A DNA stretch of 31,913 bases from a virus, in IMG/VR virus record IMGVR_UViG_3300045988_119030, positions 149,411 through 181,323 of that record. One strand, given 5' to 3'. The notes beneath the pieces were generated by a model. It had not been told where the DNA came from. It saw only the letters and a program-made list of their open reading frames with translations, and made no database searches. Of this stretch, positions 13,981-29,207 are shown in pieces (position 1 is the stretch's first letter; the number at the start of each line of letters is the position of its first letter). A program made the translations under genes and the position numbers.

Positions 13981-14009
13981 ATTATAACAAAAAACTCCAA
14001 TTTTGTCAA
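13981..14009 (-). promoter_or_regulatory. Sigma70-like promoter TTGACA-N17-TATAAT for gene 13156..13956
   Basis: tgtcaa at 14004-14009 and attata at 13981-13986 on the plus strand, spacer 17 nt. Confidence 0.5.
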
Positions 14010-14082
14010 GAAAATTCTAAACGGCTTTTTACTTTTGGACTTTCGGTGTATGCGACCAGCACCGGTCGGAGCAGATAACAAG

Positions 14083-14114
14083 AAAAAATGGACTGAAAAT
14101 TTTTCAGTCCATTT
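14083..14114 (-). terminator. Hairpin GGACTGAAAA-TTTTTCAGTCC followed by a T-run. Terminator of gene 14128..14544
   Basis: Stem, loop and U-tract read directly. Confidence 0.65.
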
Positions 14115-14127
14115 AATCATTTAACTC

Positions 14128-14544
14128 TTAGTCCTCAGCGACAATCTTGCGATAAGCCACTTTCTTTGAAGCCTTACCGCCATCAGCGCCCGGAATAGAA
14201 ACCTCAGTTTTCTCCGCGCGGTTCTCGCTCACAAGAGTGCGGAGTCGATAACTGGCACGCTGTGCGGAAACACTCTCATCGCCGAGAGCCTTGACGATCT
14301 CAGGGATGGTCATAAACTCATCGTCATAAAGAACATTATAAATCTGCTCAGTCAGCTCATCGCCCTCAGCACGCTTGGCGGCCGCACGCTCCTTAGCCTT
14401 AGCAGTCTTCTTATCAAGCAACTCAATCTCATGCTCGCAAAATGCGATCACATCATTGGGATCATACTTAATCTCACCAGTGTGCATAGCTCCGATAATC
14501 GCGGTCAGATAATCGCGCTTAGAAACCTTAACTTCATTAGTCAT
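14128..14544 (-). CDS. Hypothetical Lys/Ala/Glu-rich protein (138 aa). Markedly GC-rich (~50%) compared with its neighbours
   Basis: Clean ORF. Compositional island. Confidence 0.7.
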   Translation of the reverse strand: MTNEVKVSKRDYLTAIIGAMHTGEIKYDPNDVIAFCEHEIELLDKKTAKAKERAAAKRAEGDELTEQIYNVLYDDEFMTIPEIVKALGDESVSAQRASYRLRTLVSENRAEKTEVSIPGADGGKASKKVAYRKIVAED

Positions 14545-14617
14545 AATTTTTACCTTAACCTTTCATAAATAACAATTTTATTTTTAGGAAGTATTTCTTC
14601 CTTTACCTTACATAAAT

Positions 14618-14646
14618 ATTATATATTATTTTTTTTAAAAAATCAA
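14618..14646 (-). promoter_or_regulatory. Conserved promoter motif TTGATT-N17-TATAAT
   Basis: aatcaa at 14641-14646 and attata at 14618-14623, 17-nt spacer. Same extended motif as the other promoters listed here. Confidence 0.45.
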
Positions 14647-14661
14647 AGAAGGTCTTTGATT
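14629..14661 (-). terminator. Hairpin ATCAAAGACCTTCTTTGAT plus T-run overlapping the stop codon of gene 14635..16239
   Basis: Inverted repeat read directly. Confidence 0.45.
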
Positions 14662-16239
14662 TGGGTTAGTGCCATTAACCCAAGAAATAAACTCCTTTTC
14701 ATTAATATCAAAGAGGTCTCTACCCTTTTTAGTGAGAGTTTCTCCATCGACATAATAATTGGAGCGCCAACCGTCTCTGTCTTCTTCAATTTCACCACTG
14801 AAAAAAGTTTTTACTTTTTTATCTCCACAACAATCCCAACAAATATCCACATAGAATCCAACTGGCTTCTTCTGGAATCGAAGGCGGATTTGCTTCATGT
14901 CATCATAATCTTTGCGGACTCTGCAACAAGGACAAATTTCTGTGCTTTCATCATAACAATAAGCACAGTAAGTTTTTCCATCAACATTATAAGTGTCATC
15001 GACATAAACAATATCGCCACACTTATCGCACTTTACCGCATCCGAACAACTCGTACAAATGGTCATTTCCGCGTTATTCTCTCTATCATCGAGGAGAGAA
15101 TCATCAAGAAGCTCTCCACAACACATACACTCAGATTCACCCGAGTAGTTAAGATCAATGTTTTCGTCCGTAGGAATCTTAGTGGAAACGTAAGCATTAT
15201 GCTCTGAATAGATATCGTTATACATGAAATTGGTATCAAGATTGAAATAAATATTTCTATCAAGCTCACCAATAATATTATTACTGTAATTCTGAATCTT
15301 ATTTAAATACTTGGTATAAGGACCAAAACCAAGATTCTGTTCAGCGAGCTTTTTGATCCAAGCAAGACAAATGCTTTCAAGATTTTCATTACAATAAGGA
15401 TAACCCTTGATGCCAAGAATAAGACTTTTATCTACAATGAAAAGCTCACGCCAGCGCTTGCTATTCCACATAACAGGCTTACCAACCTTATACCAAATTT
15501 CCATATCCTTATCAGATTTAAGGTAAGCTTCGAGGATAATGGGAGAATTCATCATCTCAACGGTTCCCTGACGATACTCGCCACCACCATTCTGCCATCT
15601 CATACAAGAGTCCCAACCGCAATTATTATCACTCATAGTGATATAGTCAAGAGGATGAATAGAAAGACAAAGTTCACCAGAAATATTTTTCTGATTAAGG
15701 AACTGAGAATGAGCAATACGGAACTTTTCATAGATATCGCGGTCAATCTCCAAGATATCACTCATCTTACCAAGCATCTTGCTAAGCTTCATACCCTTAT
15801 TAATCATAAGAGTTTTATTGTTATAAGTGAATTTAAAAGATTCACCATCATAAATATTAGACATTAAAGGATCAACATCCAAAAGACTTGCCAGATTAAA
15901 ATACTGAGTATTAGAGATGGTTGTTTTAAGATAAAGATCTCTTACCTTATTATTAAAGGTATTTCGGAATTCATATCCATCACTATTTCGACCGAAATAA
16001 TCATAAAAATCCTCACTCATCTCTTCATAAGAGCGAGAATAACTTACCTTACGAGAAATGATAAGATTATTTCCCAACATCTTGTAAAGATTCTGCTTAT
16101 TATAAGCCCAAAAACGGAGAATGTAATCGAGAGATGTCTTCATATCGGAACTATCTCCACCGAGACCCGCAAAATTGCGGATATACCCTTCAATCTTTTC
16201 GCAATCTTCTTTGGAAAGGAGTTCAAATAAATTAGCCAT
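14635..16239 (-). CDS. Large hypothetical protein (paralog B, 534 aa). Core LCLSIHPLDY...W.SC...GEYRQG...WNSKRWR and a C-terminal tail of multiple CxxC zinc ribbons
   Basis: Clean ORF. Paralogous to 10694..12127. Confidence 0.8.
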   Translation of the reverse strand: MANLFELLSKEDCEKIEGYIRNFAGLGGDSSDMKTSLDYILRFWAYNKQNLYKMLGNNLIISRKVSYSRSYEEMSEDFYDYFGRNSDGYEFRNTFNNKVRDLYLKTTISNTQYFNLASLLDVDPLMSNIYDGESFKFTYNNKTLMINKGMKLSKMLGKMSDILEIDRDIYEKFRIAHSQFLNQKNISGELCLSIHPLDYITMSDNNCGWDSCMRWQNGGGEYRQGTVEMMNSPIILEAYLKSDKDMEIWYKVGKPVMWNSKRWRELFIVDKSLILGIKGYPYCNENLESICLAWIKKLAEQNLGFGPYTKYLNKIQNYSNNIIGELDRNIYFNLDTNFMYNDIYSEHNAYVSTKIPTDENIDLNYSGESECMCCGELLDDSLLDDRENNAEMTICTSCSDAVKCDKCGDIVYVDDTYNVDGKTYCAYCYDESTEICPCCRVRKDYDDMKQIRLRFQKKPVGFYVDICWDCCGDKKVKTFFSGEIEEDRDGWRSNYYVDGETLTKKGRDLFDINEKEFISWVNGTNPNQRPSLIF

Positions 16240-16290
16240 ATCTTATCAACCTCTTTTTAATATCTTTCTTAACTTTATATATATATATAT

Positions 16291-16319
16291 ATATTATAAT
16301 ATATTTTTTTATAAAAATA
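16291..16319 (-). promoter_or_regulatory. Promoter-like element (TATAAT with a weak -35) for gene 14635..16239
   Basis: Conserved ATAATATATATATAAAGTTAAGAAAG 5'UTR motif. Confidence 0.35.
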
Positions 16320-16355
16320 AAGAAAGCCCTTTGCGGTCAATCAAAGGGCTTTCTT
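16320..16355 (-). terminator. Hairpin GAAAGCCCTTTG-N8-CAAAGGGCTTTC after gene 16377..17744
   Basis: 12-bp perfect stem. Confidence 0.65.
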
Positions 16356-16376
16356 GCGAAAGGGGTTTTATTATAT

Positions 16377-17744
16377 TTACTTACAAAGATTACCCATGAA
16401 CATGAGCGGAAGAAGATCATCCGCGTTCTTGGAGTCCTTCATAAGGAAATACATCATCATCATAGGATTCTTAGAGAAATCCATGCCACCCTGACCGCTC
16501 ATCATAGAGAGCATCAGCATGGTGTTCATGTCAAACTCGCCACTATTCTCACTCATCATGAAAATGGGGAGCATATTACCAAACGGATTCTCCGCACTCG
16601 GCGCATTCTCAGGACTCTTCATAAAAGAGTCAAACAGAGAAACAACACGAGTGTAGAAGTTAAAGTTGAAGCAATTCTTCGTAGGAAGAATCTTCTTCTC
16701 CTCACCGGCCTGCGGATCGACAACCGTAATACCGCTATCGCCGACCTCAATTACGAACATAGCCTTGCGGTTATGAACAATAACCATACCAGGGGCGATA
16801 TCCTTGATGGCAACCGGCATCTTGTAAAGGAACTTACCGCCATCAAAGTTGAAGATATCGACGTCGATAATCTCCTTACTCTCAGGGTTGTAAGAAACCC
16901 AAGTGCCGTTCGCGTTCTTTACGGCCAGGCCATACATAGACATACGAATGTTATCAGTGGTGCAGGGGCCAAAATCAAAATTAAACGCCTTCATTTTCTT
17001 ATTTCCTTTCTTATCATCAACATTATTATTAAATGTATTTTGTTCGTTCAAAACTTTATTGATTCGATCATCAATATAATCGTTATCAAGCATAGCGCAT
17101 TTATCTTTAATTGCATCAATTTGACTACCGAGTGTAATTGTGCCAGGAGTAGAGGTAGCGAAAATTGCGTTAGAATCAATTGAAGCAACTTTTCCAGTTA
17201 TACAATCGTTATCAGGAACTATCATAACAGGTGTAGTATTTAACTTTCCAAGAATCTTCTGAGCTTCTTCATCGGAAATAGTATTCGCACAAGAAAATTC
17301 TGTGCTCCATATTCCCTTGTCATACACTTTGATATAATCAAGGTTATCGCAGGTTTTGCTTATATTGTTATTCTTTTCAACAGTCTTCTTTGCCCTACGC
17401 ATCTTATATTCAAGAAACTTTTCAGAACATTCAATCGCATAATCATTCGTAAAAATATTACAAACATTATCAGCTAAAAATTCACCAAAAGAACCATCAA
17501 TACCATCGGCAAAGAAAGAATTCATAATATAAGTATCAGGAAAAACCTCAAAGAAAATTTTGCCATTAAGGTCAGATTTGACAACAATCCTAACACTATT
17601 TTTAGTAGTCTTTAACTTACGCCAAAAGACGTAATCAAGCTTATGATACTTATTATCTTGAACTGCTTGACTAAAATTGTCTAAGATTTTATCAAAAACA
17701 TTAGGTGGGAATTTATAAGTTCCCATTACATTAGTTTCAGCCAT
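16377..17744 (-). CDS. Hypothetical protein (455 aa) with an unusual Met-rich C-terminal tail
   Basis: Clean ORF. Tail reads FMMSENSGEFDMNTMLMLSMMSGQGGMDFSKNPMMMMYFLMK. Confidence 0.75.
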   Translation of the reverse strand: MAETNVMGTYKFPPNVFDKILDNFSQAVQDNKYHKLDYVFWRKLKTTKNSVRIVVKSDLNGKIFFEVFPDTYIMNSFFADGIDGSFGEFLADNVCNIFTNDYAIECSEKFLEYKMRRAKKTVEKNNNISKTCDNLDYIKVYDKGIWSTEFSCANTISDEEAQKILGKLNTTPVMIVPDNDCITGKVASIDSNAIFATSTPGTITLGSQIDAIKDKCAMLDNDYIDDRINKVLNEQNTFNNNVDDKKGNKKMKAFNFDFGPCTTDNIRMSMYGLAVKNANGTWVSYNPESKEIIDVDIFNFDGGKFLYKMPVAIKDIAPGMVIVHNRKAMFVIEVGDSGITVVDPQAGEEKKILPTKNCFNFNFYTRVVSLFDSFMKSPENAPSAENPFGNMLPIFMMSENSGEFDMNTMLMLSMMSGQGGMDFSKNPMMMMYFLMKDSKNADDLLPLMFMGNLCK

Positions 17745-17898
17745 TTAGTCTCCTCTCCACTTCTCGTCGGATATATTCCATATCGCTATCCGTCAGAGTG
17801 AGTTCAGTCTAGAAGGTTGTCGCGCCCGCACTAATTTCCTTGATAATTCTTTCAAGTTCCTCAGTGTAATTCGCATAACACATAAACAAATTATCCAT
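17736..17898 (-). CDS. Small protein (~53 aa) with an in-frame TAG (17809-17811). Start and stop overlap both neighbouring genes
   Basis: TAATG start overlap with the gene above. Its TGA stop overlaps the ATG of 16377..17744. Confidence 0.4.
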
Positions 17899-18173
17899 TA
17901 CTCCATCCACTCCAATGTATCTTTATCGTCCCAAAAGAAATCAAACTCAGTATGAGCTTTGCCGTCCTTATCTTTCTTAATAAGGATATCCATCATATGA
18001 GCATGAATACCATCTTCGGGATAATCCATTTCCCAAATTTCACGAATCTTATAACGAGACTTGTGCGGAATGGCTAAATGAGTAATGAATTCTTCGGGAG
18101 TCCAAGTCTCAGTAGCCGTGCAAAACACCAAGCCATAGTGCTCACTATGAATTGCGATTACTTTTTCAATCAT
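17898..18173 (-). CDS. Small hypothetical protein (91 aa)
   Basis: Clean ORF, TAA stop. Confidence 0.6.
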   Translation of the reverse strand: MIEKVIAIHSEHYGLVFCTATETWTPEEFITHLAIPHKSRYKIREIWEMDYPEDGIHAHMMDILIKKDKDGKAHTEFDFFWDDKDTLEWME

Positions 18174-18408
18174 TGTTATCCTCTCCTAATATATCACAAA
18201 TTGCCTGATGACTAAATGTAATCTTCGCTCCAAAATAAGGAACTGTTCTATCATCAGCGATAATAATTTCCACAAAAGCGATATCGTATTTATAGAAATA
18301 TACAATACGCTTAATTGCTTCCAAATAATCAGAAGCTACTATTACACCCTGAAAATCTTCCTTTCCTGGGTCTACTGCATTAACATAAGCTATGTAGTGA
18401 TACTCCAT
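18166..18408 (-). CDS. Small hypothetical protein (80 aa)
   Basis: Clean ORF, TGA stop, 8-nt overlap with the downstream gene. Confidence 0.6.
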   Translation of the reverse strand: MEYHYIAYVNAVDPGKEDFQGVIVASDYLEAIKRIVYFYKYDIAFVEIIIADDRTVPYFGAKITFSHQAICDILGEDNND

Positions 18409-18442
18409 AACAAATAACCTCTTTTCTTATTTTCTATATATA

Positions 18443-18471
18443 TTATATATTATTTTTTATAAAAATGTCAA
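18443..18471 (-). promoter_or_regulatory. Conserved promoter TTGACA-N17-TATAAT
   Basis: tgtcaa at 18466-18471 and attata at 18443-18448. Confidence 0.55.
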
Positions 18472-18478
18472 AAAGATC

Positions 18479-18763
18479 TTACCAACTACGACATACGAGT
18501 ATACTTACATAGTCAGTATCACAAAAGGCATTACGAAGCTCGGCATAAACACGATTCACATTAGCGAAAATTTCGCGCTCATCTTCATCAACAAGAGATA
18601 AATCTTCATCATTGTTGATGAAATAAACTTCGGTATAACTCCAATCACCAAGAATAACATCTAAAACATCATTTATATCATCCTCAGTCCAATCGGGGAA
18701 AGTGTCATGCAGCCATTCAATGAACTGATCATGACGCACAACAGGCTTAGAAATATAAGTCAT
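18479..18763 (-). CDS. Small acidic hypothetical protein (94 aa)
   Basis: Clean ORF. Confidence 0.6.
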   Translation of the reverse strand: MTYISKPVVRHDQFIEWLHDTFPDWTEDDINDVLDVILGDWSYTEVYFINNDEDLSLVDEDEREIFANVNRVYAELRNAFCDTDYVSILVCRSW

Positions 18764-18797
18764 ATAAAAAAAAATCCTTTCTTAACTTTCTATAAAT

Positions 18798-18826
18798 ATT
18801 ATATAATAATATTTATAAAAAATCAA
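18798..18826 (-). promoter_or_regulatory. Conserved promoter TTGATT-N17-TATAAT
   Basis: aatcaa at 18821-18826 and attata at 18798-18803. Confidence 0.5.
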
Positions 18827-18846
18827 AAAAAGGACTTTTAATTTAT

Positions 18847-19518
18847 TTAATTATTGAATAAATCAGTGTCAATGATGGCGAAATTCGCACGATGAATATA
18901 TACTGCCTTACCATCAATTGTCAACTGAGTAGTCTTAGGAAGATTCTTCGGAATATTCCAAGAGACATTATCACCAGTAAACATACAAATGGGGTCGCCC
19001 ATCTGAGACTGAATCACCACAATCTTATTGCCGGTATCCGCATTGTTCAAATCCTTAGACTTCCAATACCACCAAGAAAGATCCCAATACTCATCCCAAC
19101 TGCGGTCGGTAGGCGCGGAAATGCTAGCTCCATTGCCACTATTAGTCGAGGCTTCCGCAGGAATGTCTACATCATACTGAGTGAGACGGCTATCAGCAAA
19201 AATAATAGTAGAACCGCAACTCTCAATACTCTTACCATCAATATCGACGCTTATAACCGACGAAAGAGAATAATAACTAACCCAACTACCGTCAGTGTTA
19301 TAACCCCATTCCTTCACTTTGTTAGGCTTAATGTCAAAGGTCTCGCCTTCACATTGAAGCCACTGAGCGCCGTGGTTATCATAAAAGGTAGCGAGGAAAG
19401 AAAGCTTAACGTCGCCATCCTCCGGCTCGGCGGTAATTGTAGTTGTTTCTGGACTGTCGCACGCAGTCAACGAAAGGCAAAGGATAATCGCAATAATACC
19501 ACAAATAAATCTCTTCAT
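18847..19518 (-). CDS. Lipoprotein (223 aa) with a signal peptide and lipobox LTAC
   Basis: MKRFICGIIAIILCLSLTAC then a Thr/Glu-rich linker. RBS AAAGGAG. Confidence 0.7.
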   Translation of the reverse strand: MKRFICGIIAIILCLSLTACDSPETTTITAEPEDGDVKLSFLATFYDNHGAQWLQCEGETFDIKPNKVKEWGYNTDGSWVSYYSLSSVISVDIDGKSIESCGSTIIFADSRLTQYDVDIPAEASTNSGNGASISAPTDRSWDEYWDLSWWYWKSKDLNNADTGNKIVVIQSQMGDPICMFTGDNVSWNIPKNLPKTTQLTIDGKAVYIHRANFAIIDTDLFNN

Positions 19519-19521
19519 AAT

Positions 19522-19698
19522 TTAATGCTCCTTTGGATTATTTTCCATATAATTTTTGATACGTTCACCATCAAACCGAGAAGGACATTTGAGACAAATA
19601 TAAGTATTATAACTACTGCACCAATGCTTCTCAGTTCCATCAGGATTGATGGTAGGATTCAAAGTGTCATACGCACAATAAATAGGTTCCATTTCCAT
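19522..19698 (-). CDS. Small 4-Cys protein (58 aa), translationally coupled by a TAATG overlap
   Basis: MEMEPIYCAYD...HWCSS...CLKCPS. Below the track's size cut-off. Confidence 0.4.
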   Translation of the reverse strand: MEMEPIYCAYDTLNPTINPDGTEKHWCSSYNTYICLKCPSRFDGERIKNYMENNPKEH

Positions 19699-20417
19699 TA
19701 TTTTACCTCACTACATCTTGTTAACGTGTTAATCTTTACATTCTTACGAACATCTTGCGATTTCACGGTTCCGCGAATATGATAAGTATTTCCAACAGTC
19801 CAATCACTCTTGGAAGAAGTGATCCACATAAACTGATTACCATCGGCATCGCTCATAGAATAAGCAATGGTATGACCATATTTGCTTTCAAGAGCGTGCT
19901 TATCATCAATTTTCACGGTAATGTCAATGCGGTCGCCAATATTGCCGATCCACTGAGCTAAACTCTCGTCATACACAAGGGCATCAACCGCGTGCTTTAC
20001 CACTTCTTCACGATAAAGCTCACCATCCGCTCCGCCAACCTTATCCCAATCAAGACGAATCGGTTCAACATCTGCGGGAAGCGCAGGAATCTCATCACAT
20101 GAGCGGAAATACCAACCCCACAACCGCGTATAGCGTGCGGAACTCATCTTAAACCAATCATTCTCTTCATCACAATTACCTTTGAAAATCGTGATATAGC
20201 CCGCATCGCCAAACCCAAGAACTTGACGATGCGGAGCCATCTTAGTTGCTACCTCTTGGGATTTTTCAGGGTAAAGCTTAGCATACTCCGCGTCTTCATA
20301 CCACCGGACTTGTCTCACATTAAGAGTTCGGGGATGCTGAACCTGAATATACTTTTTACCACCGGAAATATAAACATCACCGATTACTTTATATGACTGA
20401 AAACTCGGAGCTACCAT
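19698..20417 (-). CDS. Hypothetical protein (239 aa)
   Basis: Clean ORF. Confidence 0.7.
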   Translation of the reverse strand: MVAPSFQSYKVIGDVYISGGKKYIQVQHPRTLNVRQVRWYEDAEYAKLYPEKSQEVATKMAPHRQVLGFGDAGYITIFKGNCDEENDWFKMSSARYTRLWGWYFRSCDEIPALPADVEPIRLDWDKVGGADGELYREEVVKHAVDALVYDESLAQWIGNIGDRIDITVKIDDKHALESKYGHTIAYSMSDADGNQFMWITSSKSDWTVGNTYHIRGTVKSQDVRKNVKINTLTRCSEVK

Positions 20418-20420
20418 GCT

Positions 20421-20708
20421 TTACACCTCCCACATACTAACTATGCTAAAATGTTTTTCATCCTCTAAAATATAAGCTTCAAGCGTTTCATATTTCTTAG
20501 AGTTATTATACTTATTATATAGCTCAAAAGAGCATTTCATACTATCAAAATAATCTTCAATGGATAAATCGTGATAAACACAAGACCAAAGAAAATCATC
20601 ATAAGTTCTTTCTTCATAAAAAGAAAGAAGCATTTCATATGCATCTGAAAGATCACTGCAAGCTAAAACGGGGCGAAATTCATCACATACTAAGTGGACT
20701 CTTTTCAT
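20421..20708 (-). CDS. Small hypothetical protein (95 aa)
   Basis: Clean ORF. Confidence 0.55.
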   Translation of the reverse strand: MKRVHLVCDEFRPVLACSDLSDAYEMLLSFYEERTYDDFLWSCVYHDLSIEDYFDSMKCSFELYNKYNNSKKYETLEAYILEDEKHFSIVSMWEV

Positions 20709-21019: not shown

Positions 21020-21021
21020 AA

Positions 21022-21273: not shown

Positions 21274-21274
21274 A

Positions 21275-21547
21275 TTAATTCTCCATTAAATAATCAAATT
21301 CATAACTACACAAATAGCCTTCCTCCATCCAAGAGACAAAGCAAGCACCACCTTCTTTATTGGGCCATTCAGCGCAAGAAAGAATCCATTGCTGAGATGT
21401 ACGCTTAGCCTGGAAGTATTCAATAATTTTATCAATTGCGCTCTTGTCGCAAGTCATTACATCATAACCGCCATGACCATACTCAACGCAAATATCCTCA
21501 ATGTCTTCTTTAATTTTAGAATAAGGAATATTAACAGTTCCAAGCAT
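21275..21547 (-). CDS. Small hypothetical protein (90 aa)
   Basis: Clean ORF. Confidence 0.6.
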   Translation of the reverse strand: MLGTVNIPYSKIKEDIEDICVEYGHGGYDVMTCDKSAIDKIIEYFQAKRTSQQWILSCAEWPNKEGGACFVSWMEEGYLCSYEFDYLMEN

Positions 21548-21590
21548 AAGCGTCTCTCCTTTTTTTATCTTCTCTTTAACTTTCTATATA

Positions 21591-21619
21591 TATTATATAT
21601 TATTTTTTATAAAAAATCA
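21591..21619 (-). promoter_or_regulatory. Conserved promoter TTGATT-N17-TATAAT
   Basis: aatcaa at 21614-21619 and attata at 21591-21596. Confidence 0.5.
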
Positions 21620-21803
21620 ATAAAACTCTTTTTTGGAGGTATCATACAATCAAGGATTCAGCGTATATAATATAGCCTATTCAAGTTTGTTAGCAGAACT
21701 ATCATACCTACTTATAATCTAACCTTATTGAATAGCATCCCTAAGCGGTATGGACTGAAACTTTATCCTATTGGGGAAGAGAATGCCCTTCCAGAGTTTT
21801 ATA

Positions 21804-22121: not shown

Positions 22122-22378
22122 TAGATAGTCTCCTTATCAACTTCCATAATCTTTACATAGTAGTCGCCATAGCTGTGAACGAAAAACCCATCAAACGAAG
22201 GCTTTTTGCAATATGAGATAGACTTATTTTTTTCCCAACGCTCTTGCGCTTCCTTTTCTTTCTTTCGTCCTGCTTCAAAAGCCTTTTCCTCAGTAGAATA
22301 AAGGCTAAGCACCGCGGTATCATCACCGCCAAAACTATCATAATGATAACAAAGAGCATAAACAGTCATTAATGACAT
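22121..22378 (-). CDS. Small hypothetical protein (85 aa)
   Basis: Clean ORF. Confidence 0.55.
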   Translation of the reverse strand: MSLMTVYALCYHYDSFGGDDTAVLSLYSTEEKAFEAGRKKEKEAQERWEKNKSISYCKKPSFDGFFVHSYGDYYVKIMEVDKETI

Positions 22379-22653
22379 ACCTCCGTATAATAAGTTCCAA
22401 GAGAGCCATCTGCATTAATCCAAGAGACAATTAGCACATAAACCATTTCGATGCCGATTGTGTCGAAGACGCAGGGGATTTCAATGTTATACTCGCGGAT
22501 TCGACCCTCTCCCTTAGCCTTAGAGAAAAGAATCTCAACCGCATTAGCGATATGAACGCCGTCCTTAGAAACGAGCATTGCGTATTCATCATCTTCTGGA
22601 TCAGTATACTTTCTACCAATCAAATCCCAAAGCTCTACATACATAATTTTCAT
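22369..22653 (-). CDS. Small hypothetical protein (94 aa)
   Basis: Clean ORF. RBS AAAGGAAAT. Confidence 0.6.
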   Translation of the reverse strand: MKIMYVELWDLIGRKYTDPEDDEYAMLVSKDGVHIANAVEILFSKAKGEGRIREYNIEIPCVFDTIGIEMVYVLIVSWINADGSLGTYYTEVCH

Positions 22654-22706
22654 TTCCTTTCTTAACTTTATATATATATTATATTATATTTTTTTATAAA
22701 AATAAA

Positions 22707-22740
22707 ATAAGGACTTATGAATTAACATAAGTCCTTATTG
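22707..22740 (-). terminator. Hairpin AATAAGGACTTATG-AATTAA-CATAAGTCCTTATT after gene 22742..23332
   Basis: 14-bp perfect stem. Confidence 0.6.
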
Positions 22741-22741
22741 T

Positions 22742-23332
22742 TTAATGAACTGAATGAGCATCGCCCATGTAATAAATAGTTTCACCTACGTCTGTGATTT
22801 CACCACAAACGGTAATGTAAGAACCTTTCTTGGCATCCTTAATGAAATCGTAAACATCAGAGCCCTTGTCCATACTCCAATGGATATTATCTAAGAGAGT
22901 AAAATCGTCAGGATCAGATACAATGGTGAAGTATTTACCATCACTATCAACAGTGTCAAGATAACCTGATACCTGAATATACTTACCAGTATACTCTTCC
23001 TCAGCTTTGATAGGATAATCTTCTACCATATCAATCATCTTAGAAAGAGATTCGGATGAATATTCAGCGGTTTCCTGCTCATCGGTCTCTTCGCCTGAAT
23101 CAACCGAACTCTGAGACGAGGCTCCCGCACTTTCCACAATCGGAGTGCGGTATACAGTAGGTTCAGGATCGGGATTCCTAATGACATAATCAATCCCCGT
23201 AAAAATGATAAGCACAAGGAGAATATGGAACCAAGTCTTATCGTAGAAAGGAACCTTTACATTGCCTCCACAAAACGGACAAACTTTTGACTTATCAGAA
23301 ATGGGCTGACCGCAATGTTTACAAATAATCAT
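22742..23332 (-). CDS. Membrane protein with an N-terminal zinc ribbon (CKHCG...CPFCG), one TM helix, an acidic linker and a C-terminal beta-rich domain
   Basis: Motifs and hydrophobic segment seen in the translation. Confidence 0.65.
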   Translation of the reverse strand: MIICKHCGQPISDKSKVCPFCGGNVKVPFYDKTWFHILLVLIIFTGIDYVIRNPDPEPTVYRTPIVESAGASSQSSVDSGEETDEQETAEYSSESLSKMIDMVEDYPIKAEEEYTGKYIQVSGYLDTVDSDGKYFTIVSDPDDFTLLDNIHWSMDKGSDVYDFIKDAKKGSYITVCGEITDVGETIYYMGDAHSVH

Positions 23333-23343
23333 TTTTATTCTCC

Positions 23344-23748
23344 TTATTTCAGCTCAATAAATTCAAGCCGATCAACATATTCTCCGGCATAGATCTTCAA
23401 CCAAGGGTTCGCGCGATTAGATTTTGCGCTCGCAAGGGTTTCATTATACTCTTGGATGTCTTCATAAAGTTCGGTTGCGCCAAGGTTATTATCATTATCG
23501 GTATAATCCTGTTCAAGTCGCCATTCAAGAGCTTCTCGACGAGCCGTATATTTCTCGTAAAGAGAATCACTATATACATTTTCATTGATAACCACAATAG
23601 TAGAAAATACCATTACGATTCCAAAGATAACAGTGCCGATGAAGCCAACAATCGAACTAATACAACCAAGAGCAGAATATCTATTAGAACTCCAAACTAT
23701 GAGAGCGATAAAGCCTGCAAGCGCAAGAATAAAAACTACATAAAGCAT
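23344..23748 (-). CDS. Membrane protein (134 aa, two N-terminal TM segments)
   Basis: Hydrophobic N-terminus. Confidence 0.6.
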   Translation of the reverse strand: MLYVVFILALAGFIALIVWSSNRYSALGCISSIVGFIGTVIFGIVMVFSTIVVINENVYSDSLYEKYTARREALEWRLEQDYTDNDNNLGATELYEDIQEYNETLASAKSNRANPWLKIYAGEYVDRLEFIELK

Positions 23749-23761
23749 AACTATCTTCTCC

Positions 23762-23968
23762 TTAATGAATAAAATATTGAATTACTCCATACACTCCTGA
23801 TATGATTGGGAGCATAGAGATTATAAGTAGCAAACTTCCAGTAATGACACAAGTGTCAATTAAAAACGTATCTTCGGGAGCACTTGCGCCGTCAGCAAGC
23901 TTGAAGATACATAAGGCAAGCCTTGCTATAATTAATCCAAGAATAATTTCTACAATAAACTCTACCAT
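23762..23968 (-). CDS. Small two-TM membrane protein (68 aa), holin-like topology
   Basis: Strong RBS GGAGGAGG. Hydrophobic segments. Confidence 0.5.
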   Translation of the reverse strand: MVEFIVEIILGLIIARLALCIFKLADGASAPEDTFLIDTCVITGSLLLIISMLPIISGVYGVIQYFIH

Positions 23969-24044
23969 ATATCCTCCTCCTTAATCTAAGTCATCGAACA
24001 AAACGGATAAAATGCCAAGAGCGCAAAAACAAAGAATAATTACT

Positions 24045-24215
24045 TTAAGCATAAAAGACTGACTGAATGAAGCCGGCAAACAGGCAAAGCAACATACCCA
24101 TACCGCAGTAATAATACTTCTCATTGAGAGACATAGTATCATCATCCAGTAGATCCATATACATAAAGCCGAAAAATACTAATATAATAAATAGCATAAT
24201 AATCATTTCTCCCAT
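24045..24215 (-). CDS. Small membrane protein (~56 aa)
   Basis: Start ATG 24215 after RBS GAGGAGG. Overlaps the end of the phosphoesterase gene by 13 nt. Confidence 0.35.
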   Translation of the reverse strand: MGEMIIMLFIILVFFGFMYMDLLDDDTMSLNEKYYYCGMGMLLCLFAGFIQSVFYA

Positions 24216-24943
24216 ACCTTTTTACCTCCTCGCTTCTGCTTTCTCTTGGTCGCGGTGTCGATTGTTTTTCTGTGGACGCTCCCGATTTTCGCAGTCGGAC
24301 CATTTTTCATGAACTGATTCAAGTTCAAAGGGGCGGGACCAAACACATCCACACAAACATTCTTGTGATAGATGTCCGTCTCTTTATAATTGTGGTCGTG
24401 GCCATGAAGATTGAGAGCCCAGTCCTGCTTAATCGGTTCGTGAGAAAGCATAAGTTTCTCACCAATAAGGAGCGCACCATCATACACTTCGTCAAAAAGA
24501 CCGTTATCCGCGGAAACCTCCCAATATTCAAAGGGAGTGTGGAAATCAAATCCCGAATCAATAGAATATTTACAATCAGGATAAAGACGCTTCATTTCCA
24601 TGAGCGCTTCGTCCTTTTGGTAGTAATCCATAGAGAATTTCTTCTTGACGATTTTGCGCTTATAGTTTTCAGATCCCGCATCATGGTTGCCCTTGATGAG
24701 AACCTTATAACCGGCGCGCAGTTTCCGCACATAGGAGATATTGCCTACATCACCAAGATGAATTAATAGATCGCTTCGACCGCACTTAGAATTAATTATT
24801 TTAACAATTTCTTCGTCGGAAGGACGATTATGAATTCCCTGATGAAGATCTTCGTCTCCAAAATGAGTATCACTAATAACCCAACAAGTTTGTAGATTTT
24901 TCCATCTATCTAAAAAACTTTCATAGACACCAGGTAAATTCAT
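24203..24943 (-). CDS. Calcineurin-like metallophosphoesterase (phage Ser/Thr phosphatase-like, 246 aa) with a C-terminal Lys/Arg tail
   Basis: Motifs DTHFG, GDVGN, GNHD and HGHDH. Confidence 0.75.
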   Translation of the reverse strand: MNLPGVYESFLDRWKNLQTCWVISDTHFGDEDLHQGIHNRPSDEEIVKIINSKCGRSDLLIHLGDVGNISYVRKLRAGYKVLIKGNHDAGSENYKRKIVKKKFSMDYYQKDEALMEMKRLYPDCKYSIDSGFDFHTPFEYWEVSADNGLFDEVYDGALLIGEKLMLSHEPIKQDWALNLHGHDHNYKETDIYHKNVCVDVFGPAPLNLNQFMKNGPTAKIGSVHRKTIDTATKRKQKRGGKKVWEK

Positions 24944-24955
24944 AATTATTACTCC

Positions 24956-25885
24956 TTAACAAATTCTAAAAATTGTTGTATCCAATTTCAAATCATTAAT
25001 TGATAATTTATCTAAATGAAAATATGGGATTCTAATTAACGGGATGTTATTTTCTTTACACCATTGATTTTTAAAAGCATCATGTTCTTTTGTTTTTTCA
25101 AACTTTTCTAATGTATTCCAACCAGTTCCAGATTGATAATGCTATATTCCATCAAATTCAATTAAATAAGAATTATCAATATAAAAATCAAATTTAGCTT
25201 TATGGTTAGTATCCTAAAATTTACAATTTTCAAAAGTTTTTTCACAAATATACTAAATATTATGTTCTTTTAATAAAGAGATAATTTTTTCCTAACCTGC
25301 TGATTGTAAACAACCACAAGATTTACTTTGTCCTTTTCTTAAAGTAGTTCCTGATACAATTTTTTGATTGCCACAAGAGCATTGGCATAACCACATAGCA
25401 GTATTATGCTAATTAGATCCACTACGTTTTAACACTGTCCATCGACCAAAAGTTTGTCCTGTTAAATCAATTGTTGTAAGTTCACCGATCTTTTTATGAA
25501 TATAACAACCACATGAAATAACGGCGCCACTTACTAAACCATCTTTACGAATACTTTTAATAGTTCCACAATCACACTAACATTTCCAATAAGTATGCCC
25601 TTTTCCTTCTGTTCTATCATATCCTAAAACTGTTAGCATACCGAATTTTTTACCTGTTAAATCTTCTAACTGTTTTAAACGTTTCTAACATCCACACGAA
25701 GTTGTATGATTTGAAGTTAAATGAGAAGCAGAGACTACTGTCTTATTACCACATTCACATTGACATAACCAATACGATCCTTTTCTTGAATATTCAACTC
25801 GATATAAAACTGTTAATTTTCCAAAATGCTAATTAGTCAAATCTTTTGCTTGTCCTACTGGAATCTATTTATAAATTTTTTCCAT
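24956..25885 (-). CDS. DNA endonuclease-like protein: three N-terminal zinc-finger repeats (FG.LTVL...W.CQC.CG...SCGC) plus a C-terminal DUF559/Vsr-like PD-(D/E)xK domain (DFYID...IEFDGIQH). Nine in-frame TAG codons
   Basis: Region has no track ORF. Frame from ATG 25885 (RBS AAAAGGAG) to TAA 24956-24958 contains only TAG interruptions. TAG occupies positions that are CAA (Gln) in the sister repeats. Confidence 0.6.
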
Positions 25886-25979
25886 AAAATCACTCCTTTT
25901 CTATTATATGTATAAATAGAAAAGGATAAAATAATAAAATTTATCCGAAGTCGCCAACCCGATTATTCAACCGGCCTCC

Positions 25980-26255
25980 TTAAAATGCGTAAGCATTAAA
26001 TTTATACATATAGAACTCGCCATCCATAAGAAGAAGTTTATCAATCTCTTCTCGATGATCGATCTTCCACCAATCAGGAGCAGGAAAAGGAAGATCGTAA
26101 TACTCGATTCGCTGAGTTTCCATAATATCTTCTTCGATTGCACCTTCGAGGAAAGCAAGATATAACTCTTCCGCTTCTGCTTCTGAAATGTTGGCGAATG
26201 TCCAAGACTTACCAGTCATTTCATCTTCGATTTTATAACAAGTAATTTCTTTCAT
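25980..26255 (-). CDS. Small acidic protein (91 aa)
   Basis: Clean ORF. Confidence 0.55.
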   Translation of the reverse strand: MKEITCYKIEDEMTGKSWTFANISEAEAEELYLAFLEGAIEEDIMETQRIEYYDLPFPAPDWWKIDHREEIDKLLLMDGEFYMYKFNAYAF

Positions 26256-26266
26256 AGTTATTCTCC

Positions 26267-26587
26267 TTACATTTCAACCGCATCAACGAAATCAATGAAA
26301 ACATCATTGGCGACCTCGTTCATCATATCGAGGTAAGAAGAAAATCTCCTTGTCCACTCGCCGGTCATTTCGCCGTGGTAAAGATACCAATCATAATCAG
26401 AATCTTTCTGAATCATTTCGAACTGACGCTCCATAAGACTATCATCGACCATATCTCGACAATATTCCATAAACATTTCCTGCATATCGGCTTCGGACGC
26501 ATTCAGGAAATAGAAATTATGGTCTCCGGCCGTATCACAAAGAATACCAATAGAATGAGTTTTAATCTTAGAATTAGAAGTAGTCAT
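26267..26587 (-). CDS. Small acidic protein (106 aa)
   Basis: Clean ORF. Confidence 0.6.
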   Translation of the reverse strand: MTTSNSKIKTHSIGILCDTAGDHNFYFLNASEADMQEMFMEYCRDMVDDSLMERQFEMIQKDSDYDWYLYHGEMTGEWTRRFSSYLDMMNEVANDVFIDFVDAVEM

Positions 26588-26620
26588 AATTTTTATTTCC
26601 TTTCTTTACTTTATATATAT

Positions 26621-26649
26621 ATTATATATTATTTTTTTAAAAATGTCAA
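26621..26649 (-). promoter_or_regulatory. Conserved promoter TTGACA-N17-TATAAT
   Basis: tgtcaa at 26644-26649 and attata at 26621-26626. Confidence 0.55.
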
Positions 26650-26680
26650 AAAAGGATTTGCGGTTTGCGCAAATCCTTTT
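26648..26680 (-). terminator. Hairpin AAAGGATTTGCG-N5-CGCAAATCCTTTT after gene 26686..26901
   Basis: Stem plus U-tract. Confidence 0.65.
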
Positions 26681-26685
26681 AGAGA

Positions 26686-26901
26686 TCAGAGAACGGGAGC
26701 ATAATTATAATAAATAATCATGTCTTCCAGTGCATCTTTGTAAAGTTTTGTATCAAATTTACGACAATGGAATCGTTTCTCGACATTCTCTTCGATCGCG
26801 GACATAGCGATTTCGAGAGCGTCAGATTCACTTACGTTTGTAGCGCAGTAAATCTCATCACAAGGCGCGTCATAAACGAATACGACAGGCATATGATTCA
26901 T
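26686..26901 (-). CDS. Small hypothetical protein (71 aa)
   Basis: Clean ORF. Confidence 0.5.
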   Translation of the reverse strand: MNHMPVVFVYDAPCDEIYCATNVSESDALEIAMSAIEENVEKRFHCRKFDTKLYKDALEDMIIYYNYAPVL

Positions 26902-26959
26902 ATATTATTCCTCCATTAATTGATTTTACCCAAAATTTTTGTTATAATATATTTAGAAA

Positions 26960-27199
26960 TTAAAAGAGTTCAGTCGCATCAAAGAGATTTAAGAACTCTT
27001 CGGCAATCTCAGATGATACAAGTAAACTTGTTGATCCATTGAACCAATCAATGTAAATACGAGTAAGTGGACTACCACCGGCTTCCGCGATTTCATCAGC
27101 ATACTGTTTAGAATCAACGGGAGAGAAGCTAACTGCATTAATGTTATTTGTGTTAATAAGATATTTATAACCGCGGAAATTGCGAATAATTACATTCAT
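26960..27199 (-). CDS. Small hypothetical protein (79 aa)
   Basis: Clean ORF. Confidence 0.55.
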   Translation of the reverse strand: MNVIIRNFRGYKYLINTNNINAVSFSPVDSKQYADEIAEAGGSPLTRIYIDWFNGSTSLLVSSEIAEEFLNLFDATELF

Positions 27200-27480
27200 C
27201 TAAATGCCTCCTCAGAAACAAAATTTTTGAGTTGTCTTATAACTCTCATACCATCAGGATCTCTATCGGTAAAGGTGTATTCATAGCGAGATTTATCTTT
27301 TAGACAAAATTCAAGCTTTGTTCCAGAAGTCTCGGTGGAGATATCATCGTCATCTGAGTTATCCATAGTAATGCGGTTAGCCAAAACCACGACAATCTCA
27401 TTTATATTAAGGAAAACACGGTCGCCGTTAGACATTTTTAAATAAATCAATTCACCTTTATTCATTTTACTTCTCCACAA
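27196..27480 (-). CDS. Small hypothetical protein (94 aa)
   Basis: Clean ORF, 4-nt overlap. Confidence 0.55.
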   Translation of the reverse strand: MWRSKMNKGELIYLKMSNGDRVFLNINEIVVVLANRITMDNSDDDDISTETSGTKLEFCLKDKSRYEYTFTDRDPDGMRVIRQLKNFVSEEAFR

Positions 27481-28066
27481 TATAATCTTTCGCTACATCT
27501 GTTCCTTCTGGAATATAGAGATAAGTGCGCGTTGACTTAGAACAAATGAAGAACCACTCTCTCCAATCGCCGTAGCGCGGGAGTCGCTTCTCAACGTGCG
27601 GAACCTGATTAGAGTAAACAACTACCGTGTCATTTGCCGGATAATTCTTAGTGCTTGTAATGCCATCAGCGCTAAGGGTAAGATAAGTGTAATAAATACT
27701 TTCACCCTCGAAAGCGCGGTAAGTATAGATATTGCCATCATCATCCATACTTGTTAACTCTTGGGCTTCCGCAATCGTATAATCATATTCGGAATAATCT
27801 TCCTTAACAGAAGACATTATAACTCCGCCAAACATACTTACGGCAAGATAAAGACAAACGCCGATCCAAAAGGCAGGAATAATTTGACGGGGAATGTCAA
27901 CGCGGTCGCGGTGAGACCAATTGCGGAAGCGCTTGGCCTTAGGATCGGAAAGAGTGCTGTAATAGCCATAGCTACAATATGCAGAATGAATGGCGAAAAT
28001 CAGAAAAATAATTAAGGTCGGTAGAACAAATCCGCCCACGAGCGTTTTCAAGAAGAAGATAAGCAT
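27467..28066 (-). CDS. Membrane protein (199 aa, two TM segments)
   Basis: Hydrophobic segments. Confidence 0.65.
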   Translation of the reverse strand: MLIFFLKTLVGGFVLPTLIIFLIFAIHSAYCSYGYYSTLSDPKAKRFRNWSHRDRVDIPRQIIPAFWIGVCLYLAVSMFGGVIMSSVKEDYSEYDYTIAEAQELTSMDDDGNIYTYRAFEGESIYYTYLTLSADGITSTKNYPANDTVVVYSNQVPHVEKRLPRYGDWREWFFICSKSTRTYLYIPEGTDVAKDYIVEK

Positions 28067-28080
28067 ATTTAAAAACTCCT

Positions 28081-28530
28081 TTAAAGAATAGGTTTAAGTT
28101 TATTGCAACAATTGAAATCTCTCATACAGCCATTTTCTTCGCTGAAACAAGAACAACCATTTTGGCAAGTATTACGAATAATGTCGGGATTACGGACATT
28201 CGTGATGGCTTGCATATTTCCAACGATTTCTCGCTTTTGGATCATTTTCGGCGTGTCGGGAGAATCATTAAACGCGCAGTTCACATTTTGTTCACAATTT
28301 GCGCATGTACTAAGTTTTGCCCAACATTTATCGCAATAAGTGTTGCCTTGATCGTCGATGATCATTTGCTTATGGAAAATTGGAGTATGACATGCTTTAC
28401 AAGTGTAATATTCACCGCAAAGAAAATTATCGCAGATCGCATGATTTGGGTCAATTGTATTGCCTGTGATTTGACATAATCCGGTCGTTGGCCGGTAATA
28501 ACCGCAGTTATTACAATAAAAAGTCATCAT
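28081..28530 (-). CDS. Cys-rich protein (149 aa) with multiple CxxC pairs
   Basis: YCNNCG...CDNFLCGEYYTCKAC...CDKC...CANC read from the translation. Confidence 0.65.
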   Translation of the reverse strand: MMTFYCNNCGYYRPTTGLCQITGNTIDPNHAICDNFLCGEYYTCKACHTPIFHKQMIIDDQGNTYCDKCWAKLSTCANCEQNVNCAFNDSPDTPKMIQKREIVGNMQAITNVRNPDIIRNTCQNGCSCFSEENGCMRDFNCCNKLKPIL

Positions 28531-28781
28531 AGCACTTTGGCAGAATATGGAGCATCTTCGCCATCAAATTTTAGAATCTTGTTAGCAAGATCGTGATTGA
28601 CGCGCAAAGGGCCATCATCAAGAGGAGTAAATGCAACAGTAATAAGATCGTCGAAATACTCTTCGGCCCAACGGCCAGCTTCTGCGAGAGTTTCCGCGAA
28701 GATAAAACCGCACGTAAGTCTATCCATTTTATCAGAGTCGTCCCAATAACGTGCTTCATAATAAACGGGGCATTGTTTCAT
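28527..28781 (-). CDS. Small hypothetical protein (84 aa)
   Basis: Clean ORF. Confidence 0.55.
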   Translation of the reverse strand: MKQCPVYYEARYWDDSDKMDRLTCGFIFAETLAEAGRWAEEYFDDLITVAFTPLDDGPLRVNHDLANKILKFDGEDAPYSAKVL

Positions 28782-28797
28782 ATTTATTTTCCTTTCT

Positions 28798-29136
28798 TTA
28801 AGAGATTGTAGAGATTAGAAAAATCTCGGGATCATCAAGGCTTTCGATGGGGATTTTGAGAAACTTTGCGTAAGCTTCCTTCATTGTGTTATTAAGGCGA
28901 TAATACTCCTGCGGAGCGATGAAGATATTGTCGATGCGGACGGCCTCGCCTGCGGAAGACTCACCGAGAAGATAGCCGAAGATAGGATTTTCGTCGTTAT
29001 CATAGTCGCTTGCGCGATGCCAATAACCTTCCTCGGTAAGCTGTTCGATAGCCTCAGCCATATTATCATAGTTTTCAAGAAGGTTCTTGGGGACTTTATA
29101 ACCACACACGAGCTTAGAACCAAAATCAACAGACAT
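28798..29136 (-). CDS. Hypothetical protein (112 aa). First gene transcribed leftward from the divergent control region
   Basis: Clean ORF. Confidence 0.6.
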   Translation of the reverse strand: MSVDFGSKLVCGYKVPKNLLENYDNMAEAIEQLTEEGYWHRASDYDNDENPIFGYLLGESSAGEAVRIDNIFIAPQEYYRLNNTMKEAYAKFLKIPIESLDDPEIFLISTIS

Positions 29137-29178
29137 TATTTATCACCTTTCAATAGTTTTTCTTTATTTTATATTTAT

Positions 29179-29207
29179 ATTATATATTAAAATTTAATAA
29201 AAATCAA
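29179..29207 (-). promoter_or_regulatory. Conserved promoter TTGATT-N17-TATAAT driving the leftward gene block
   Basis: aatcaa at 29202-29207 and attata at 29179-29184. Confidence 0.5.

Follow-up and report, generated by a model that had tools for sequence, protein, structure and literature searches.

We analyzed a 31,913-nucleotide (nt) stretch of viral DNA (IMG/VR record IMGVR_UViG_3300045988_119030, positions 149,411 to 181,323; hereafter, the window, numbered from its first letter) that looks like part of a large phage genome, and we focused on a short repeated element that joins a promoter to the beginning of a transcribed leader (hereafter, the cassette). From approximately 13.1 to 29.2 kb, the window holds 32 mostly small genes arranged head to tail on the minus strand (G+C content, 0.31 to 0.49), and the flanks of this block are far more AT-rich (0.17 to 0.29). 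Searches of 20 proteins of this presumed early region against PHROGs and Pfam left nearly all of them without a function, so that gene function was of no help, and no T4-like family was matched among the 20 window proteins searched. A megablast search of the 13- to 30-kb region against GenBank phages gave no match, and tblastn searches with the 534- and 455-amino-acid (aa) proteins gave either none or only distant matches to Bacillus jumbo phages. An Rfam search and a tRNA scan of the window found nothing, and no integrase was seen among the window proteins that were profiled.

An earlier note on this DNA had described a nearly identical element of ~70 nt in front of nine gene starts. The conserved unit proved to be ~52 nt long instead (consensus, TTGATTTTTTATAAAAAATAATATATAATATATATAGAAAGTTAAGAAAGGA), and it was matched at 41 to 50 of 52 positions at eight of the nine sites. 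The copies, all on the minus strand, lie at 29156-29207 (41/52; gene 28798-29136), the outermost leftward promoter, which adjoins an origin-like region; 26598-26649 (48/52; TTGACA-17-TATAAT; gene 26267-26587); 22655-22706 (47/52; degenerate -35, TTTATT; gene 22369-22653, with the leader directly joining the ATG); 21569-21620 (50/52; gene 21275-21547), a recombinant hybrid described below; 18775-18826 (48/52; gene 18479-18763); 18419-18471 (48/52; TTGACA with an 18-bp spacer; gene 18166-18408); 16262-16321 (44/52; degenerate -35 and an [AT]n expansion after the -10; gene 14635-16239); and 14595-14646 (44/52; promoter half only, followed by a different 85-nt leader and gene 14128-14544). The longer leader of this last copy (14545-14629, minus strand) holds a small hairpin (GGAAGAAATACTTCC) and, immediately before the gene start, a mini-ORF of three codons (ATG AAA GGT TAA). 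At the ninth site, before the start at 13956 (gene 13156-13956), we found a generic sigma-70-like promoter (13981-14009, minus strand; TTGACAaaattggagttttttgtTATAAT) that agrees with the consensus at 29/52 positions, in the hexamers only, and is not a member. Three looser relatives of the element had been overlooked: 13115-13166 on the minus strand (39/52; TTGACA-17-TATAAT with TG at -15/-14; upstream of gene 11998-13104), 31083-31134 on the plus strand (41/52; preceded by a hairpin at 31057-31080 and followed by rightward genes), and a loose variant at 2406-2457 on the minus strand (TTGACT...TAATAT; upstream of the YcaO gene at 605-2392).

The repetition is far beyond chance. With up to three mismatches allowed, a probe for the -10 and discriminator (TATAATATATATAGAAAG) had nine matches versus 0.42 expected; a spacer and -10 probe (TTTTTATAAAAAATAATATATAAT) had five versus 0.01 expected, and a leader probe (AGAAAGTTAAGAAAGGA) had four versus 0.34 expected. 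Alignment of the sites confirmed that the similarity goes further than AT-richness and two hexamers at eight of the nine, extending to the spacer, the discriminator, and the first ~15 transcribed bases, both in the window and across the related phages described below; only the site before 13956 fits the simpler description.

Read from its upstream end, the cassette consists of a -35 hexamer, TTGA(T/C)(T/A); a 17-bp spacer formed by a T-tract and then an A-tract, with T at -17 and -15; a -10 hexamer, TATAAT; an AT-only discriminator; and a predicted start at T(-1)/A(+1). The eight strong copies combine TTGACA or TTGATT with TATAAT at a spacing of 17 to 18 bp, and on this match the element reads as a promoter of the primary sigma (sigma-A/sigma-70) type. 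At the position of the Gram-positive "-16 region," the strong copies of the window read TAATA or TATAA, without a G. The initial transcribed region, A(G/T)AAAgtwAAGAAAGGA, is purine-rich and unstructured, and in many copies it supplies the Shine-Dalgarno sequence.

Hairpins are fused to part of the copies. The earlier note had placed hairpin terminators for the upstream genes before several of them, and hairpins directly upstream were confirmed at the copies at 26649, 22706, 16321, and 14646 and at the unlisted copy at 31083 (plus strand), with minimum free energies (MFEs) of -13 to -21 kcal/mol for the five; hairpins are weak or absent at 29207, 21620, 18826, and 18471. On the minus strand, a terminator-like hairpin at 26650-26682 (AAAGGATTTGCG/CGCAAATCCTTTT; MFE, -17) abuts the -35 of its cassette, an intrinsic-terminator-like hairpin at 16320-16355 (14 pairs; MFE, -21) abuts the copy at 16262-16321, another at 22706-22739 (14 pairs) has a T-tract that overlaps the -35 position of the copy at 22655-22706, and a hairpin at 14638-14665 likewise overlaps the -35 of the copy at 14595-14646. 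Two copies (22706 and 16321) no longer have the -35 TTG, and the T-tract of an upstream terminator extends into its place. Among 269 unique cassettes of the clade, a hairpin of -15 kcal/mol or lower was present in 30% of the upstream segments (53 nt ending just inside the -35), compared with 3% of control windows and 0% of shuffled sequences; this enrichment holds despite the lower G+C content of the upstream segments. About one third of the cassettes are thus composite terminator-promoter units. A generic terminator scan showed no significant enrichment over shuffles (16 versus 10.7 ± 3), and only the hairpins abutting cassettes were enriched.

The search for the motif in related phages, which the earlier note had proposed, was productive. 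An exact 36-mer was found in five IMG/VR contigs, and a degenerate 40-mer was found in at least 119 stretches from ~60 IMG/VR contigs of 26 to 200 kb from many samples, among the matches listed (individual stretches are referred to by L numbers). One of these, L001 (172 kb), has near-zero nucleotide similarity with the window (one 101-nt match) and yet carries eight cassettes in 14 kb. As a control for circularity, we collected 373 promoters from the fetched loci that were anchored only on TTGAyh-N17-TATAAT and did not match the search pattern. These promoters also had T at spacer positions 6 to 8 (frequency, 0.75 to 0.80), A at positions 12 to 15 (0.77 to 0.86), an ATATAT discriminator, T at -1 (0.83), A at +1 (0.78), A at +3/+4 (0.85 to 0.88), and a purine-rich sequence to approximately +20. 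A at -12 to -8 relative to the -35 hexamer was only weakly enriched across the clade (0.45 to 0.53).

Recent spread of one segment could give the same picture. If a promoter-leader segment had been duplicated or converted recently, the likeness outside the -35, the -10, and the Shine-Dalgarno sequence would be a trace of history without function. Exchange between copies does occur, as hybrid cassettes and leader-mediated rearrangements show, and within the window, the leader (AGAAAGTTAAGAAAGGA) varies less than it does in the clade-wide consensus. However, paralogous copies are about as alike between genomes as within them (mean identity at nonhexamer positions, 0.60 to 0.72 and 0.65 to 0.74, respectively), including genomes without other nucleotide similarity, and the consensus persists across the ~60 contigs mentioned above. 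Concerted evolution was rejected on this comparison, since the within-genome identity is barely above the between-genome identity; the consensus thus reflects a shared constraint. When relatives of ~92% identity are compared, orthologous cassettes agree at 95.9% of positions (spacer, 97.9%), and the 200-nt flanks agree at 90.4 to 91.4%. Given the between-genome similarity and the slower evolution of orthologs relative to their flanks, selection explains the conservation better than recent copying, and we regard a purely historical origin as very unlikely. We conclude that the cassette is real, functionally constrained, and clade-wide.

The conservation runs ~15 to 20 nt past the predicted start, and the earlier note had suggested a shared regulatory RNA leader, which would make the transcribed part a cis-regulatory RNA (riboswitch, attenuator, or protein-binding leader) common to the units. 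The leaders do not behave in this way. Their MFE was 0 to -4 kcal/mol in seven of nine cases and less stable than the shuffle mean in six of nine, the Rfam search of the window found no family, and beyond about +15 the leader keeps only its purine-richness across the clade. In relatives, tRNA genes lie within 120 nt behind 35 of 266 cassettes, and the same type of sequence precedes them, which speaks against a translation-specific leader; in L001, for example, a tRNA-Tyr gene begins 4 nt past ...AAGAAAGGA. Conservation from +1 to +17 is of equal strength in copies that precede tRNA genes (0.66; n = 35) and in those that precede ORFs (0.65; n = 174), indicating that the transcribed part is not merely a ribosome-binding site. 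A structured RNA leader was therefore rejected, as folding is no more stable than in shuffles for most copies and Rfam holds no match, and a regulatory RNA of any of these kinds seems scarcely credible to us. A sufficient rationale for the conserved transcribed region comes from the initiation process itself. The initial transcribed sequence can shift promoter strength >10-fold, with purine content and GA/GG steps favoring escape (PMC5961368), and we infer by analogy that this effect would apply here.

The repeats have also served as crossover sites. Except for L008, every close relative has a unit of ~2 kb (about six small genes and then a terminator) with one cassette on either side (A and B), and the window has the single cassette at 21569-21620 in place of A, B, and the ~2 kb between them. 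This copy is a hybrid: its upstream flank, -35, spacer, and discriminator are of the A type, and its leader is of the B type from AGAGAAG on, so that its 5' part comes from A and its 3' part from B, with the crossover falling within ATAGAAAGTTAA. L008 also has a single cassette, in which the switch from A to B lies within TTTTTATAAAAAA. The different crossover points in the window and in L008 indicate two independent homologous crossovers between 50-nt direct repeats. Leader modules may be involved at another gene. Relatives have two tandem paralogs from which the 94-aa gene at 18479-18763 is a chimera, and its polymorphism arises from recombination between such paralogs; in L006 and L012, only the leader module TAGAAAGTTAAGAGAGGAC, with no promoter, lies between the two. 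L008 retains only the second paralog, probably through recombination between leader modules, and L007 retains almost none of the gene; the polymorphism of this gene in L007 and L004 is an internal deletion.

The earlier note had offered recombination-driven shuffling of cassettes as a cause of the similarity. The hybrids at 21620 and in L008, with their different crossover points, uphold the recombination itself; as the main reason for the similarity, shuffling fails, because copies are equally alike between distant genomes and few indels are cassette mediated. In an all-against-all indel survey, only the A/B locus, one of ~13 distinct indel loci, had its junctions inside cassettes, which make up 1.7% of the sequence; the remaining indels show overlaps of 0 to 35 nt elsewhere. 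We therefore rejected the idea that the majority of gene gains and losses are due to cassettes. Exchange through cassettes does take place and is enriched, but it does not account for the bulk of the variation. These data also bear on the idea of a dedicated gene-cassette system that recombines at the cassette, either integron attC-like or miniature inverted-repeat transposable element (MITE)-like, in which the resemblance to a promoter would be secondary. Cassettes do flank units that are present or absent among relatives, and the mini-circles of the T4-type elements discussed below provide a precedent (PMC2839356). The two crossovers nevertheless fall at different positions within the repeat, which is typical of homologous exchange and unlike the fixed crossover point of integron gene cassettes; terminal inverted repeats and target duplications are absent, cassettes are involved at only one of the ~13 loci, and no integrase was seen in the window. 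A dedicated system of this kind is highly improbable.

Several genes of the window make sense only when TAG is read as an amino acid, which indicates that the phage is amber recoded (code-15-like). In-frame TAG codons occur in the following otherwise intact genes: 3155-5242 (minus strand; a radical-SAM/glycosyltransferase [GT2] fusion; 10 TAG codons), 5181-5762 (minus strand; 5), 24956-25885 (minus strand; 9), 29658-30308 (plus strand; 8), and 13156-13956 (minus strand; 1). In gene 24956-25885, one TAG is aligned with a Gln codon (CAA) in an internal repeat (LCQCECG versus KC*CDCG). The early block uses 26 TAA and 6 TGA stop codons and no TAG stops (0 of 32), and in-frame TAG is absent from 30 of the 32 genes; the block is thus compatible with the standard code (code-neutral). 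A composition split runs alongside: the cassette-driven TAG-free genes have a G+C content of ~0.31 to 0.49, compared with 0.17 to 0.29 for the TAG-using and neighboring genes (13 to 29 kb versus 0.6 to 9 kb). It is possible that the early genes are adapted to the tRNA pool of the host and the later ones to the large tRNA set of the phage itself.

TAG was also counted behind the cassettes of the full set of loci. Genes that come first behind a cassette have 0.48 in-frame TAG per 1,000 codons, and 7 to 8% of them carry any; genes without a cassette within 4 kb upstream have 4.4 to 4.7 TAG per 1,000 codons, and 40 to 44% carry one. In relatives, the amber-suppressor tRNA(CUA) genes also lie behind cassettes: all 13 evaluable genes have a same-strand cassette 60 to 1,766 nt upstream, and 4 have it within 115 nt. 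Recoded phages have been modeled as using the host code for the expression of their early genes (Borges et al. preprint), in a preprint on phage stop-codon recoding that makes no mention of promoters, and the TAG depletion together with the cassette-headed suppressor tRNAs fits this early-genes-in-host-code model. A bolder version would make the cassette the tag of a "standard-code regulon," in which one class of host RNA polymerase (RNAP) promoters starts the takeover genes, which are TAG-free, as well as the tRNA arrays with the amber suppressor, and a dyad in the spacer is the operator for shutoff by a suppression-dependent regulator. If true, the code switch would be wired to the promoter, the regulator (e.g., a TAG-rich DNA-binding protein) would depend on suppression, and the early-to-late switch would be code gated; we consider this full scheme a long shot.

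The tRNA arrays have features of their own. In L052, L064, L080, L110, L028, L128, and other relatives, tRNA(CUA) ("tRNA-Pyl(cta)" according to ARAGORN) occurs in cassette-headed tRNA arrays. Between the cassette and the first tRNA of the array there is often a segment of 60 to 110 nt (L006, 19322-19430; L075, L073, L080, and L052), closed by a 5- to 6-bp stem (e.g., GACCTT...AAGGTC) with a conserved wACAGCAAa immediately behind the 5' arm. The segment of L006 has inside it a tRNA-like gene whose anticodon loop is odd (Rfam tRNA, 42.7 bits). Such segments might serve as processing stems or represent tRNA-like RNAs of an unusual kind.

The explanation that we favor, and hold to be likely on the sequence evidence, is that the cassette is an early promoter class read by the primary-sigma RNAP of the host, with an extended consensus under selection. 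The perfect match in hexamers and spacing points to the host sigma-A/sigma-70 enzyme, which would initiate at T(-1)/A(+1) of each cassette. Selection for strong initiation and promoter escape, rather than copying within genomes, would maintain the extended consensus. In about one third of the copies, the fused terminator would end the upstream unit, giving insulated transcription units of one to six genes. The cassettes would drive small ORFan genes without TAG in frame or as a stop and, in relatives, also tRNA arrays that include the amber suppressor; this expression would precede, or be independent of, the phage's switch of TAG to an amino acid. Being 50-nt direct repeats, the copies are occasional substrates for homologous recombination, and units would be deleted or duplicated in this way from time to time, as seen at one locus.

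The nature of the host was approached from two sides. Strong AAGGAG/GGAGG Shine-Dalgarno sites occur across the whole early region, and every weak match in a BLAST search of the 52-mer against cultured phages came from phages of low-G+C Gram-positive bacteria. Together, these observations point to a Firmicutes-like host. A scan of 185,579 species genomes gave 39 cassette matches (L131 to L169), all on metagenome-assembled genome (MAG) contigs from ruminant, gut, and other metagenomes. Their labels are scattered (Clostridia, Mollicutes, Treponema, Methanobrevibacter, Nanosyncoccus, and others), and one 163,874-bp "Mollicutes" MAG contig holds many cassette copies; the 39 contigs are probably phages mis-binned into MAGs.

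Several points weigh against a host-read early promoter class. We infer both the early timing and the dependence on host RNAP from the sequence features given above. The taxonomic labels of the species-genome matches contradict one another, and we dropped host assignment from them. The depletion of TAG directly behind cassettes, about tenfold (Fisher p, 2e-11 to 6e-9), was obtained with a crude ORF caller from related, not phylogenetically independent sequences, and genes further down a cassette's unit have 2.5 to 3 TAG per 1,000 codons. The copies at 22706 and 16321 are without a recognizable -35 or a TG extension and may be weak or factor dependent. Finally, the conserved T-tract/A-tract spacer, which contains the 12-bp palindrome TTTTTATAAAAA, is required by no known sigma-70 rule and could be a protein-binding site.

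In an alternative reading, the promoter class needs or obeys a phage factor: the spacer dyad (centered at approximately -24) and a rough dyad of the whole element would form an operator for a repressor or activator of the phage or else a determinant for a phage-modified host RNAP. T4 early promoters and the Alt-modified polymerase provide a parallel for modification of the host enzyme by a phage. Consistent with such a factor, the spacer is as conserved as parts of the hexamers and is 97.9% identical among orthologs, the palindrome TTTTTATAAAAA is perfect, the cassette's own matrix gives its reverse complement a moderate score, and two copies retain the spacer though the -35 is lost. A TAG-rich winged-helix-like gene also adjoins the outermost cassette, but it is flanked by its own iterons, which suggests a role in replication, and no candidate regulator is tied to the motif. 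An AT-only sequence is, moreover, 50% self-complementary by chance, and T- and A-tracts in the spacer also occur in strong phage promoters that are read by unmodified RNAP. We therefore regard a phage factor as unlikely, and we retain the host-read promoter class as the preferred reading.

The closest known counterparts are the promoter-early stem-loops (PeSLs), which have been described in T4-type phages as "mobile regulatory cassettes" (Arbiol et al. 2010, PMC2839356; Comeau et al. 2014, PMC4122927). A PeSL consists of a repeated strong sigma-70-like early promoter together with a stem-loop terminator and ends in a Shine-Dalgarno sequence and ATG; PeSLs cluster among ORFans in hyperplastic regions, where recombination between them deletes or inserts units and leaves a chimeric copy with variable crossover points (PMC2839356 and PMC4122927). 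The present element resembles them in the sigma-70-consensus-like promoter of its eight strong copies and in a 3' end that bears the Shine-Dalgarno sequence and ATG of the next gene, although 35 of the 266 copies in relatives precede tRNA genes. Most of the downstream genes are also without a Pfam or PHROG function, many indels separate relatives that are ~92% identical, and a single chimeric copy remains after deletion (window, 21569-21620; independently, L008), with differing crossover points. The stem-loop is shared only in part: it occurs at 5 of ~11 window copies and at 30% of the 269 clade-wide, whereas most copies are without it, and here it always lies upstream of or overlaps the -35 and has no GGGG...CCCC stem motif. 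The AT-rich block that precedes the promoter in PeSLs likewise has only a partial counterpart, the weak enrichment of A at -12 to -8 relative to the -35 hexamer. Further differences lie in the carrier, an uncultured, TAG-recoded phage of ~160 to 200 kb from a different clade with no sign of T4-likeness in the window (hallmark genes are outside the window); in promoter features of the Gram-positive type; in a spacer and an initial transcribed region that are much more tightly conserved; in copies that also drive tRNA arrays; and in cassette-mediated events that are a minority of the indels. We conclude that the element works like a PeSL and is the same kind of element, but it is not a member of the T4 PeSL sequence family.

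Homology beyond the hexamers is also seen in the strong early promoters of coliphage T5 (e.g., P_N25), of T4, and of the SPO1 early classes, all of which are read by host RNAP. In T5 N25, the initial transcribed sequence (ATAAATTTGAGAGAGGAG) is purine-rich and merges into the Shine-Dalgarno sequence; its counterpart in the cassette is ATAAAGTTAAGAAAGGA. An AT-rich spacer with A/T tracts is another trait in common, and the many short units with terminators recall the host-takeover module of SPO1. The consensus described here is distinct from all of these and is kept over a large uncultured clade. Effects of the initial transcribed sequence are documented (PMC5961368 and PMC12464699). The early (cro) promoter of Streptococcus thermophilus phages such as P0092 is laid out in a similar way (TTGACA, a 17-nt A-rich spacer, TAAAAT, ATAAAGTTAAGAAAGGAG, and ATG), and its 17-nt leader matches the window copy at 22655-22671; however, it occurs once per genome, lacks the T-tract half of the spacer, and gave a marginal BLAST match (E, ~0.03). 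This likeness indicates a general low-G+C Gram-positive solution. With regard to the Gram-positive -16 region (TRTG), the 373 control promoters have T at -17 (0.91), A at -16 (0.66), and T at -15 (0.86), but G at -14 reaches only 0.40.

Two other comparisons fit less well. The earlier note had called the genes moron-like. Morons (Juhala/Hendrix) are likewise genes with their own promoter and terminator, but they are (pro)phage additions between core genes, with expression from the prophage and without conserved repeats at their flanks; the units here form a contiguous, presumably early region with one promoter family common to all. For small TAG-free ORFan genes in the presumed early region of a lytic-looking phage, the term is a loose fit. 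The conserved 5' untranslated region structure of Rfam-type cis-regulatory RNAs is likewise absent here.

Strong repeated early promoters with terminators, and recombination between them, are thus already known from PeSLs, and the mechanism is ordinary: a primary-sigma promoter, an escape- and translation-friendly leader, and an optional terminator, with a recombination role that is documented and minor. These data extend PeSL-type promoter-mediated gene loss beyond T4-type phages. The 40-nt consensus provides a simple marker for a large uncultured clade of TAG-recoded ruminant-gut phages and for the genes and tRNA arrays that are predicted to be expressed by the host polymerase. Because TAG is depleted directly behind cassettes and suppressor tRNAs lie behind them, a model with an early standard code and a late recoded phase becomes testable from metatranscriptomes without a cultured host; the main value of the cassette would be as a marker of a standard-code regulon in an uncultured amber-recoded phage clade.

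The window contains other features of interest. At 26920-26948 on the plus strand, a sigma-70-like promoter (TTGATT-17-TATAAT with an extended -10, i.e., TG before it) points antisense into gene 26960-27199; its predicted transcript starts with a hairpin (AAGAGTTC...GAACTCTT), and the promoter may produce an antisense RNA. Gene 24956-25885 (minus strand), which is TAG-rich and has a G+C content of 0.28 within the higher-G+C early block, encodes a 309-aa protein with three W-x-C-x-C-x-CG repeats and a nuclease-like C terminus and no Pfam match. It is missing in L002 and L008, where 123 to 204 nt replace it, and a portion of it has a match in phage L001, which is unrelated in other respects; the gene looks like a mobile insertion of the homing endonuclease type. 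The very AT-rich region at 605-8910 (minus strand) is a gene cluster that resembles those for ribosomally synthesized and posttranslationally modified peptides (RiPPs) or a modification pathway, with the YcaO gene (605-2392), the radical-SAM/GT2 fusion (3155-5242), and two radical-SAM-like genes (6083-7489 and 7489-8910).

Between the divergent transcription units lies an origin-like region (29207-30400 and 31830-31913). Seven copies of an iteron of ~20 nt (TAGGTAATTTTTCATAGTT) flank the TAG-rich 216-aa gene (29658-30308), whose product has weak winged-helix matches (HTH_36 and LexA_DNA_bind), and a second repeat set (TGGTCAAAATTTTCTGAT) is present. The sign of the GC skew changes at ~28 to 29 kb, and further tandem-like repeats occupy the window end (31830-31913).

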